A stretch of DNA of 47,341 nt from assembly GCA_021812365.1 (NCBI GenBank), contig JAKANQ010000004.1:1-47341 (forward strand). The letters are read 5' to 3'. The translations under genes and the position numbers were made by a program. The notes under the pieces were generated by a model. The model saw nothing but the letters and a program-made list of their open reading frames with translations. It was not told where the DNA came from and did not search any database. Shown piece after piece: positions 6,297-31,329 of the stretch; position 1 is the stretch's first letter, and each line of letters opens with the position of its first letter. The DNA comes from a bacterium. GTDB taxonomy: Bacteria > Patescibacteriota > Minisyncoccia > UBA6257 > GWB1-50-10.

Positions 6297-7463
6297 ATGA
6301 AAATTGTTGCATCTTTTTTGGTTGTGGGGGCAATCAGCGGTCTTATGATATATGCAAGCGGCGGATTCAATGCATTCGTTGAAAATCTGCTTTCTACGCG
6401 CAGTCCGTTCTCCTCAGCTGAGGAAATCAACCTTGATTCGCGTGGAAACAATATTGCTGAAATTAAAGGCTCGCTCGCAGTGAATATGAAGAAGAGCTCC
6501 GAGAAAAAAGACGCAGTACTTCTCAAACAATGTAGTGCAATACCGGGTGTGGCGGAGGCGGGTGATGTGCTCCTTAACGAAGTTGCGTGGATGGGAAGCA
6601 GGGGAGATTCAAAGCGGGAGTGGATAGAGTTGAAAAATAGTTCGTCATCGGCCATTTCTCTGGCGGGTTGGGAATTATTGGATAAAAGCGGAAAGATTGA
6701 TGTGCGTTTCGGTAAGGGCGACGTCATTCCTTCCAACGGTTTTCATATCGTTTCTCGTGGAAGTGATTTTGCGGGCACGATAAATAATAGCGATGAGGCG
6801 CTCTATCTTTTTGATGCCAATTGCGGATTGCGAGATATGGTCGTTGCAAATTCAAAATGGCCCGCGGGGGATGCGAAACAATGGATGACCGCGGAGCGAA
6901 ACTCCGATCTTGGCTGGAACACATCCCAATCGGCCGGAGGCACCCCGGGAAGAGAAAATAGCGCTACGGTGAACACATTCAATAAGAATACTAACGCTGT
7001 GGCCACCAAGCCAGTTGAATCTGCTCCTTCGGCAATTCGTATAAGCGAGGTGATGGCGGGAGGAAAAAATGATTCCGATTTTGAGTTTGTGGAGCTTTAC
7101 AACACATCCGATTCTTCCGTTTTGCTCACAGGAGTATCGCTCAAAAAGAGGAGTTCGGGGGGTACAGAGTCCACGCTTGTTTCGGAAAGCAGATTGAATG
7201 GAAAGACGCTTCCCGCACATTCCTATTTGCTGCTTGCGAATGAGAAAGGGTATACGGGAAGCGCACATGCAGACGTGGTATGGCCCTCATCTTACTCATT
7301 ATCGGAAAATAACAACGGTATTGTGGTGTATGATGCACACAATGTTGCGATTGACTCGGTACGTTGGGAGAGCATTCCCGAGGGTTCGAGCATGACTCGT
7401 GACGGGTGGGAGAACGGTTCATTCCATACCAATGCACTGCCCACTCCACAAAACTCCCACTAG
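6297..7463 (+). CDS. Secreted protein with two lamin-tail (LTD) domains
   Basis: Two copies of 'L/I.NEV/SEV...EWIELKN/EFVELYN...L.G..L' each ending TPGREN / PTPQNS. Confidence 0.8.
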   Translation: MKIVASFLVVGAISGLMIYASGGFNAFVENLLSTRSPFSSAEEINLDSRGNNIAEIKGSLAVNMKKSSEKKDAVLLKQCSAIPGVAEAGDVLLNEVAWMGSRGDSKREWIELKNSSSSAISLAGWELLDKSGKIDVRFGKGDVIPSNGFHIVSRGSDFAGTINNSDEALYLFDANCGLRDMVVANSKWPAGDAKQWMTAERNSDLGWNTSQSAGGTPGRENSATVNTFNKNTNAVATKPVESAPSAIRISEVMAGGKNDSDFEFVELYNTSDSSVLLTGVSLKKRSSGGTESTLVSESRLNGKTLPAHSYLLLANEKGYTGSAHADVVWPSSYSLSENNNGIVVYDAHNVAIDSVRWESIPEGSSMTRDGWENGSFHTNALPTPQNSH

Positions 7464-7563
7464 TCTCGCATTCCAAATCTTTTCTTGTTCCCAAAATTCT
7501 CACTAATCTCACCGCGAAACTAAAAGAAATAATAAGAAGCACTCAAACCTTCCAAAAAAGCCA

Positions 7564-7610
7564 ACGATTGGTAAATATATATACAATACATACATATATT
7601 TACCAATCGT
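7564..7610. repeat. Palindromic site, copy 1
   Basis: Perfect 17-bp inverted repeat ACGATTGGTAAATATAT (7564-7580) / ATATATTTACCAATCGT (7594-7610); followed by TGaTATACT extended -10 at 7612-7620. Confidence 0.9.
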
Positions 7611-7632
7611 GTGATATACTGATAATAAATAT

Positions 7633-8364
7633 ATGGGCGGACCTCTACTTCATGATAAAAATAAAATAAGAAAACGTGCAGAGGAGAAAAGGGAACGAGA
7701 AAGACGTACGCATGCAGAAAGTCGATTAAAAGATAGGAAGTCACGAAGATCTTCTGTGGCGGGGCGCATTCCCGAAGACTTTTTACGTAGGTTATATGTT
7801 GTGGAAAAAAAATCAATGAGGGAGATTGCTGAAGTGTGTTCGTGCTCAATACATAAGGTAGCGTATTGGATTGTTGCATACTCGATTCCGGTGAGAAATC
7901 AAGGCGATGCAGTCTATGAAGCAAAACATAAACACGGTATTTCCCTTTCTTTTGATGAAAAACATATAGAAATTAAAAGTCCTATTTTTTTATATGGAAT
8001 TGGTCTCGGAATGTATTGGGGAGCGGGATTGCGAAGCGGTAACGCTATTCGCATTGGAAGCACTAATCCAGAATTTATAAAAAAATTTATTAATTTTCTT
8101 CACTCTGTCTACGGAGTGCCGCCGAACCTTTTGCATTTTGGTCTTACAATTTCTAAGGATATAAGTGTGGACAATGCTATTTCTTTTTGGGCAAACGCTT
8201 TTTCCGTATCCGCAACGCAATTTCAAAAGCCGATTATTGTGAATTCACACAAAAAAACAGGACAGAAAAAAGAATGGAAGTACGGATTTGTTACGTTATA
8301 TTTTTTTAATTCAAAATTAAAAAAAAGATTAATGAGTGATATTAAGCAATATGAATTATCATAG
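7633..8364 (+). CDS. Basic HTH plus LAGLIDADG-like domain protein
   Basis: HTH-like 'LRRLYVVEKKSMREIAEVCSCSIHKVAYW'; 'GIGLGMYWGAG...IRIGSTNPEFIKKFINFL...YG' resembles single-motif LAGLIDADG-like proteins; AT-rich relative to neighbours. Confidence 0.6.
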   Translation: MGGPLLHDKNKIRKRAEEKRERERRTHAESRLKDRKSRRSSVAGRIPEDFLRRLYVVEKKSMREIAEVCSCSIHKVAYWIVAYSIPVRNQGDAVYEAKHKHGISLSFDEKHIEIKSPIFLYGIGLGMYWGAGLRSGNAIRIGSTNPEFIKKFINFLHSVYGVPPNLLHFGLTISKDISVDNAISFWANAFSVSATQFQKPIIVNSHKKTGQKKEWKYGFVTLYFFNSKLKKRLMSDIKQYELS

Positions 8365-8365
8365 T

Positions 8366-8406
8366 ATTGGTAAATATATATACAATTTGGATGTATATTT
8401 ACCAAT
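8366..8406. repeat. Palindromic site, copy 2
   Basis: ATTGGTAAATATA-N15-TATATTTACCAAT; first 21 bp identical to 7567-7587; same 41-bp geometry; followed by TGaTATGAT 8406-8414. Confidence 0.9.
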
Positions 8407-8425
8407 GATATGATTGGATTATGTG

Positions 8426-8468
8426 GGGTGGGAGTAGGGTGGGAGTAGGGTGGGAGTAGGGTGGGAGT
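8426..8468 (+). repeat. Tandem repeat (GGGTGGGAGTA) x3.9, G-quadruplex-forming motif
   Basis: Units at 8426, 8437, 8448 and 8459 (10 of 11 bp); eight G3 tracts. Confidence 0.9.
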
Positions 8469-8515
8469 GGTGTGGTGGGTTTGCGGAGGGGTAGGAGATT
8501 GGGTAAACTTAATCA

Positions 8516-31217: not shown

Positions 31218-31242
31218 TAATTCGTCTTTCTCCCGCACAAAG

Positions 31243-31329
31243 CGGAAGGGGCGAGATTCGAACTCGCGAGAGGATTTCTCCCCTACAGTCTTTCCAGGAC
31301 TGCGCCTTAGACCACTCGGCCACCCTTCC
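31243..31329 (-). tRNA. tRNA-Ser (GGA)
   Basis: GGAAGGG/CCCTTCC acceptor, anticodon arm CAGTC-CTGGAAA-GACTG, long variable arm, GTTCGAATC, discriminator G, no encoded CCA. Confidence 0.95.

Follow-up and report, generated by a model that had tools for sequence, protein, structure and literature searches.

A gene for a probable, catalytically degenerate HTH-LAGLIDADG protein in a Patescibacteria genome is bracketed by two copies of a 41-bp palindrome, its candidate operator

We analyzed a window of 47,341 nucleotides on contig JAKANQ010000004.1 of a Patescibacteriota genome (assembly GCA_021812365.1, hereafter G000). An open reading frame (ORF) for a protein with a helix-turn-helix (HTH) and a LAGLIDADG-like domain is bracketed there by two copies, P1 and P2, of the palindrome ATTGGTAAATATA-N15-TATATTTACCAAT. 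The genes adjoining this cassette are a Lamin-tail-domain (LTD) gene, a tRNA_bind gene and a DsbD_TM-like gene. The bracketed gene is single-copy in the genome. As an earlier sequence-only reading of the locus had noted, it is AT-rich, with a GC content of 0.26-0.42 against 0.47-0.53 in the flanks. The evidence presented below leads us to favor, on balance, the view that the palindromes are cognate operators of a catalytically degenerate, homodimeric HTH-LAGLIDADG protein encoded in a once-mobile accessory cassette.

The two palindromes start 799 bp apart and are identical over their first 21 nt and their last 13 nt, and a single nucleotide separates the TAG stop codon of the ORF (8362-8364) from P2. 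The sequence-only reading had described this arrangement, and its positions, spacing and 21-bp identity were all confirmed. A repeat search extended the direct repeat to 49 nt with 82% identity. It also extended the inverted repeats to arms of 20 nt at P1 (7564-7583/7591-7610, 95%; span 7564-7610) and of 28 nt at P2 (8358-8385/8387-8414, 86%; span 8358-8414). With up to two mismatches allowed, the 13-mer arm has 6 matches against 1.03 expected, a number attained by 0/100 shuffles, and the four exact matches are the four palindrome arms; that the pair arose by chance is excluded. Across the whole genome (626,283 bases, 25 contigs), the four arms are the sole exact copies, and the sole additional match with at most one mismatch is one single half-site on contig C4. 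A duplication produced by the assembly would have undermined the earlier reading. However, 4/4 DNA sequencing runs contain a 1,279-nt contig that matches 7200-8455 without a single difference, showing that the duplication is not a private artefact of the present assembly, although the four runs come from one study, probably of the source sample, and hence are not independent. No RNA run is listed among the runs carrying the matching contig.

The ORF protein carries the motif LYGIGLGMYWGAG, in which the sequence MYWGAG pointed out earlier occupies residues 127-132. The corresponding motif of the family is LGLGLYWGEG(S/T/N)K, with Glu at the LAGLIDADG catalytic-acid position in 47/64 sequences. 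The ORF protein has Ala131 at this position, which bears out the proposed loss of the catalytic acid, and the Glu is also missing in its 8 closest relatives. An NCBIfam search returned 0 families, Pfam returned only DUF1804 at an E value of 0.05, below its cut-off, and no Pfam LAGLIDADG model matched the ORF protein. A sequence-profile search of the PDB matched the HTH and nothing else. Among the relatives, Pfam recognizes the HTH as HTH_23 in 18/64 and as Sigma70_r4_2 in 11/64.

A model built from the 64-sequence alignment reached a mean predicted local distance difference test score (pLDDT) of 88.5 and shows a long basic helix, a three-helix HTH and an alpha/beta domain at residues 103-243; a single-sequence AlphaFold model, with a pLDDT of 45, was discarded. 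Structural comparison of the C-terminal domain with VIA-align matched 7qsu_A (Z 7.9), 8dy9_I (6.7), 2vs8_A (6.7), 1mow_A (6.4), 3hyj_D (5.9), 3e54_B (5.8) and 2dch_X (5.6), with I-CeuI, I-CreI, I-MsoI and PI-PfuI lower down. LAGLIDADG domains hold ranks 1-4, 6, 8, 10 and 11, and at least 13 LAGLIDADG entries are found among 50 rows. All Z values are at most 7.9, and those below 8 denote a possibly generic arrangement according to the tool; with Foldseek, no PDB entry matched at E ≤ 0.001, and OmpA-like chains with a template-modeling score of ~0.25 came closest. A LAGLIDADG fold of this domain is thus likely, not proven. Residues 43-93 match HTH DNA-binding domains with a Z of ~5. Together with the Pfam matches of the relatives, the model supports the two-domain layout proposed from the sequence.

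Residues 100-243 were predicted to form a homodimer with a score of 0.83, the best control scoring 0.01. This mark is attained by 20/30 proteins solved as one-chain pairs and by 1/23 solved as single chains. The prediction runs agree in at least 63% of contacts, the partner pLDDT is at least 84, and the dimer is symmetric, with an interface made by the LAGLIDADG helix (residues 113-131). As structures of LAGLIDADG homodimers have been solved, this result shows likeness to them. Eight homologues with 49-58% identity are all intact (237-243 aa), and they share 66 invariant columns that are densest in the HTH. The protein thus looks maintained for binding DNA, not for cutting it.

The family comprises long forms of 230-260 aa with a basic N-terminal helix and short forms of ~195 aa. 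A site of 38-40 bp with TTGG...CCAA ends lies 17-26 nt ahead of the ATG at 10 loci by a strict symmetry criterion. Degenerate forms of the site in L014, L020 and L022 bring the tally to all 13/13 long-form loci, and the upstream site is present at 0 of the short-form loci. Across the loci, perfect pairing covers between 12 and 22 bp and the unpaired center between 0 and 19 nt, yet the total length is constant. This pattern is more in keeping with two half-sites at a defined spacing than with a hairpin. The inner arm differs by lineage (AAATATA, TAACTTA, CCAGCAA, AGAGCAA, AAGAGTA) yet changes symmetrically. Directly after the site, the relatives have an extended -10 box, TGnTAnnnT, followed 6-12 nt later by the ATG with no Shine-Dalgarno sequence, so placing the center of the site at ~-38 to -41 relative to the predicted transcription start. 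Such a fixed geometry, with invariant ends, association with one protein form and overlap with a promoter, is what would be expected of the operator of a dimeric regulator.

The G000 locus has the same layout. The -10 boxes that the sequence-only reading had placed after each palindrome were both verified, and a promoter prediction scan returned TTTACC-16-GATAAT ahead of the ORF. The ATG lies 6-12 nt past the -10 boxes and lacks a Shine-Dalgarno sequence, suggesting a cassette mRNA with little or no leader.

A second copy of the site, 2-9 nt past the stop codon, is present in 4/4 members of the ORF's own clade for which flanks are available: G000, G010 (L007/L008), G094 (L010) and L047, a metagenome contig that is the only close locus from a metagenome scan. 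Homologues thus do have flanking palindromes, on both sides in this clade, to which P2 is confined, and most relatives have the upstream copy only. The G094 copy retains the catalytic Glu, showing that P2 is not tied to the loss of catalysis. In G000, G010 and G094, the exact arms occur at the cassette and nowhere else, which argues against a regulon.

Table 1 Features of the cassette in G000 (positions in the window)
Feature	Position	Strand	Description
Left flank, cassette-specific	7464-7566	+	Between the stop of the upstream LTD gene and P1; no counterpart in the G009 empty site
P1	7567-7607	no strand	41-bp palindromic site; outer 13-nt arms exact, center imperfect; homologous site in 13/13 long-form relatives
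Promoter	7612-7626	+	Extended -10 TGaTATACT (hexamer 7615-7620) overlapping a second -10 candidate, GATAAT (7621-7626)
ORF, 243 aa	7633-8364	+	Basic helix 9-34, HTH ~43-93, LAGLIDADG-like domain ~103-243
P2	8366-8406	no strand	Second site copy, 1 nt past the stop codon
Promoter-like remnant	8406-8423	+	TGaTATGAT (hexamer 8409-8414), 6 nt, ATG at 8421 opening a 12-codon frame; function doubtful
G-rich tandem repeat	8426-8475	+	GGGTGGGAGTA; perfect 11-nt unit, 3.9 copies; begins in the cassette-specific right flank

These observations can be accommodated by a model in which the ORF protein is a homodimeric DNA binder, a Glu-to-Ala offshoot of a family of free-standing, homing-endonuclease-like proteins usually encoded next to tRNA genes. 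One dimer would occupy each palindrome, with its two HTHs reading the invariant outer ATTGG/CCAAT and its LAGLIDADG core spanning the variable center. Occupancy of P1, at ~-40 of the gene's own extended -10 promoter, would set transcription of the gene. Autorepression is favored, as in I-TevI, with class-II-type activation as the less likely option. P2 might be an auxiliary site that cooperates with P1 by looping, or a protein or hairpin roadblock that keeps transcription of the cassette out of the downstream host gene. The whole ~1-kb unit would be an accessory cassette, formerly mobile. The sequence-only reading had proposed operators serving both autoregulation and control of a downstream G-rich transcript. 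Operators, with autoregulation at the upstream copy, are the better of its two options. The second part was not supported, because the -10-like box past P2 is 5 bp closer to the palindrome than at P1 and in a different register, and the other three double-site loci (G010, G094 and L047) have no -10 box after P2.

Several observations weigh against cognate operators, beginning with the absence of a Foldseek match and the low structural Z values. Without a conserved promoter beside P2, its role is guesswork. The copies in G010 and G094 are each perfect palindromes of 19-22 bp even though P1 and P2 differ at their centers. An operator made of two half-sites alone would not call for this, and it hints at selection for hairpins or at their generation. 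The P1-ORF-P2 unit occurs in three unrelated contexts, namely between the LTD and tRNA_bind genes (G000, G010), in a tRNA-Thr cluster (G094) and beside a low-molecular-weight (LMW) phosphatase gene (L047), a distribution that is also compatible with a mobile unit whose functional ends are the sites. Finally, extra copies of the site at varied places in L021, L094, L014 and L047 go beyond simple autoregulation. L021 has two identical site segments upstream (1073-1119 and 1331-1377; ~45-47 nt, 100%), 258 nt apart and flanking a terminator-like hairpin, and L014 has an extra copy after rpmG. L094, the second paralogue of G010, adjoins tRNA-Thr and keeps the Glu; its sites are at 709-747 and 1928-1966, the latter inverted and ~200 nt past the tRNA, with an orphan fragment resembling a tRNA 3' half (~1838-1878) in between. 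In L047, a third copy (1484-1523) precedes a divergent LMW phosphotyrosine-phosphatase gene by ~25 nt, with TATAAT in its center on the strand of that gene.

The distribution of the cassette bears on the main alternatives. The gene is present in 2/8 genomes of the genus. A tree of two concatenated neighbor proteins, from which G005 was omitted because the query protein was not found there, gave (G000,(G009,G010)) with a support of 0.99. G009, whose neighbor proteins are 86% identical to those of G010, has a clean empty site in which the LTD stop is followed by GTTTGCGGAG. The extra DNA amounts to 1,005 nt in G000 (7464-8468) and to 927 nt in G010, and the cassette-specific right flank of G000 ends at 8468, ahead of the conserved GTTTGCGGAG. 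The indel boundaries lie 54-103 nt to the left of P1 and 41-62 nt to the right of P2. The outer spacers are not alignable between G000 and G010; on the left, 7464-7566 faces a 54-nt equivalent in G010. Either the whole unit was lost from G009, or it was acquired independently by G000 and G010 at one and the same position. The G-rich tandem repeat, located between P2 and the promoter of the tRNA_bind gene, is missing from G010 and G009; it has eight G3 tracts on the plus strand and might form a G-quadruplex.

One alternative is that the palindromes are functional ends or targets of a mobile cassette cut by the endonuclease, or by an active paralogue acting in trans. The unit would then move by a cut-and-paste mechanism, through half-site microhomology that primes copying, or through loxP-like site-specific recombination. 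Mobility of some kind would account for the three unrelated contexts, the AT-rich composition and the patchy presence of the unit, including its absence from G009, the sister of G010. It would also be in line with the catalytic Glu kept by the G094 copy and with the inverted pair of sites that the Glu-bearing, tRNA-abutting paralogue of G010 has of its own. However, 0/4 congeneric empty sites (G006, G007, G008 and G009) retain a palindrome. The palindromes therefore travel with the gene rather than being left behind, which argues against the loxP-like excisable cassette offered by the sequence-only reading. The indel boundaries are away from the sites, the ORF protein lacks the catalytic residue, and most relatives have only the upstream copy. 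No recombinase gene was found among the adjoining genes, the neighbors being what the search covered. Neither a single-palindrome empty site in the four congeners nor a deletion or circle joint in the contigs of the 4 DNA runs was found, the latter being weak evidence since contigs drop rare variants. We thus regard this explanation as unlikely. A bolder reading, which we hold to be improbable, is that P-ORF-P represents a new kind of minimal self-mobilizing cassette in which a dimeric HTH-LAGLIDADG enzyme cuts its own 41-bp site. The gene would be excised or copied and inserted at a break or a P-like site, with a full site regenerated on each side, and the Glu-less G000 copy would be a stranded element surviving only as its own repressor.

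It is similarly unlikely that the palindromes act as nucleic acid hairpins independently of the protein, with P1 terminating or insulating read-through from upstream and P2 serving as a 3' stem-loop that ends or stabilizes the cassette mRNA. Both copies fold strongly as RNA, in G000 (P1, -19.8 kcal/mol, z -5.6; P2, -23.3 kcal/mol, z -5.1) as in G010 (-22.2 and -26.1 kcal/mol, z -11.9 and -7.8). Together with the perfect copies of G010 and G094, this may reflect a hairpin function or a palindrome-regenerating mechanism. P2 is always just past the stop codon. On the minus strand, a T-run comes after P1 (7564-7610, P1 then TGGCTTTTTT), and the site scores like an intrinsic terminator; the A-run is not conserved in G010. 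Nevertheless, no sense-strand U-tract follows P1 or P2 in G000, G094 and L047, and the stems are AT-rich. A hairpin requires neither invariant TTGG/CCAA ends nor a fixed 38-40 bp with free stem and loop lengths, and the occurrence of the site only with the long protein form ties it to the protein.

Weakest, and improbable in our view, is the idea that P2 is a functionless vestige. It would be either the operator and promoter of a second tandem cassette that decayed, or a copy of P1 that arose by local duplication. In its favor, the sequence after P2 resembles the arrangement at P1, with a TGnTATGAT box and, 6 nt later, an ATG, the repeat runs 8 nt past the palindrome on the promoter side, and L021 shows that 47-nt segments of P can duplicate locally with 100% identity. 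However, no ORF remnant was detected after P2 in G000, G010 and G094 (profile search, best E 0.34; weak, as the regions are short). P2 is also intact, symmetric and unchanged in position across four lineages with proteins only 43-58% identical, amid unalignable spacers, which argues for selection.

The locus can be compared with several known systems. The homodimeric homing endonucleases I-CreI, I-MsoI and I-CeuI resemble the ORF protein in having one LAGLIDADG-type domain of probably matching fold, a dimer with two-fold symmetry through the motif helix (predicted in our case) and a palindromic DNA site (presumed in our case); like these enzymes, relatives of the ORF protein carry a Glu at the acidic position. 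The ORF protein differs from them by an additional N-terminal HTH and basic helix, by the Ala at the catalytic position and by the lack of a Pfam LAGLIDADG match, and its gene is free-standing rather than in an intron or intein. Sites of I-CreI-type homodimers are ~22 bp long, whereas the site described here has 41 bp.

WhiA (DUF199) is monomeric and consists of two LAGLIDADG domains followed by a C-terminal HTH. The ORF protein shares with it a LAGLIDADG-like scaffold devoid of catalytic residues combined with an HTH, and the WhiA-type matches 8dy9_I and 3hyj_D are among those listed above. In contrast, the ORF protein has one dimerizing domain and an N-terminal HTH instead of two tandem domains, no sequence relationship to WhiA and no regulon, and its gene is accessory rather than conserved. 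In excerpts of two reports, WhiA is presented as a bacterial transcription factor with degenerate LAGLIDADG domains and an HTH that binds DNA and does not cut it (PMC3240954, PMC3384342). The present locus thus offers a concrete candidate case of the route proposed for WhiA, in which the scaffold of a homing endonuclease becomes a regulator that only binds DNA; with the presumed DNA site in hand, the idea is directly testable.

A precedent for autoregulation is I-TevI, the endonuclease of the phage T4 td intron, which according to an excerpt of one report binds an operator overlapping its own promoter and thereby represses itself (PMC2988022). I-TevI is a homing endonuclease with an HTH-type DNA-binding domain, and the site described here abuts the gene's own promoter, where binding is predicted. 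However, I-TevI is a monomeric GIY-YIG enzyme and an active nuclease with a single operator that resembles its homing site, unlike the LAGLIDADG-type protein and the palindromic, two-copy site of the present cassette. The 41-bp palindrome with its lineage-specific interior and the orthologues of 43-58% identity provide a natural series for the study of DNA reading by HTH-LAGLIDADG proteins, which is of some interest for meganuclease engineering.

The family to which the ORF protein belongs is large and Patescibacteria-wide. In a phmmer search, 949 representative proteins matched at E ≤ 1e-3, of which 133 also passed E ≤ 1e-10, seven homologues are 51-58% identical to the ORF protein, and matches were found in 46/96 genomes of the same taxonomic family. 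Homology extends over the HTH and the C-terminal domain, both of which the ORF protein has. Most members sit against a tRNA gene. The 5' end of a tRNA lies within -21 to +39 nt of the stop codon in 45/56 tabulated loci, the commonest offset being -10, where U8-A9-G10 of the tRNA provide the TAG stop. The tRNA is 102-259 nt off in 4/56 loci, and none occurs within 400 nt in 7/56, including G000, G010 and L047. The nearest relatives adjoin tRNA-Thr(GGU), and more distant paralogues adjoin tRNA-Tyr, tRNA-Ile(UAU), tRNA-Gly(GCC) and others. In G000 the 3' end of the ORF is not at any tRNA, and the only tRNA of the window is at 31242-31329. The G000 copy is part of a small clade that has left the tRNA. 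What is new here relative to the family is the off-tRNA location, the lost catalytic Glu and the second site after the stop codon, which adds an off-tRNA, double-site form to a large family of selfish genes at the tRNA genes of Patescibacteria.

That family is apparently undescribed. A literature search did not find tRNA-abutting or palindrome-flanked LAGLIDADG genes in bacteria of the candidate phyla radiation (CPR), supplements being outside its scope, and the CPR matches concern known rRNA-intron LAGLIDADG enzymes only. A tblastn search against phages gave no match.

Given the tRNA habit of the family, a tRNA origin was considered for each palindrome. P1 as the leftover front half of a tRNA was rejected as a general origin, since the alignment beat shuffles in 1/11 loci; the upstream region of L011 has a 13-nt exact match to the tRNA 5' half (0/300 shuffles), and L020 and L013 have a p of 0.067. 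P2 as a decayed tRNA was also rejected, because G094 has an intact, insert-bearing tRNA-Thr(GGU) 218 nt past P2. Nor does the site look like a native promoter element of tRNA-Thr, as it is absent upstream of all 42 tRNAs of G000 and from the one gene-less relative examined, G034. Three of the 5 genomes queried had no match, and the match in G012 was not tRNA-Thr(GGU).

The tRNA-Thr(GGU) genes are themselves unusual. At many loci, ARAGORN run with introns showed that 171-228 nt are inserted into them behind anticodon position 36/37 (L010, oriented, 2471-2728; L011; L012; L017-L020; L067-L088; L094, 1420-1720). The insert follows a U, ends in G and has conserved internal blocks. Some of these tRNAs are named Arg or His by the program through another placement of the intron, and the 5' exon ends in ...ACTCCATGGT in all. 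Rfam searches of 12 loci at gathering thresholds and of 6 loci at E ≤ 1 did not reveal a group I intron, and the inserts were unmatched. Both tRNA-Thr(GGU) and tRNA-Thr(UGU) are missing from the G000 assembly, in which contig C8 breaks just upstream of tRNA-Trp (6443-6514); relatives hold a Thr-Thr-rpmG-Trp cluster there.

Other nuclease families may share the tRNA-abutting habit in G000. By eye, a GIY-YIG-like ORF runs into tRNA-Tyr at an end of contig C6 (1-300), and an HNH-like ORF (...CPNCH...) directly upstream of position 4286 of contig C4 runs into tRNA-Leu(UAA). Longer proteins of 300-820 aa (e.g., P0014, P0029 and P0090) also contain the HTH module of the family, repeated 4-10 times in tandem. 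Among the matches of this module are a designed "CAP repeat" and a double HTH that binds CRISPR repeats (PDB 8vd6_A, 2lvs_A). In L092 of G034 (505-1574), an HNH gene and a second ORF, and no family member, lie between tRNA-Thr(UGU) and tRNA-Thr(GGU), and a 9-nt copy of the first bases of the tRNA is found ~75 nt upstream of it.

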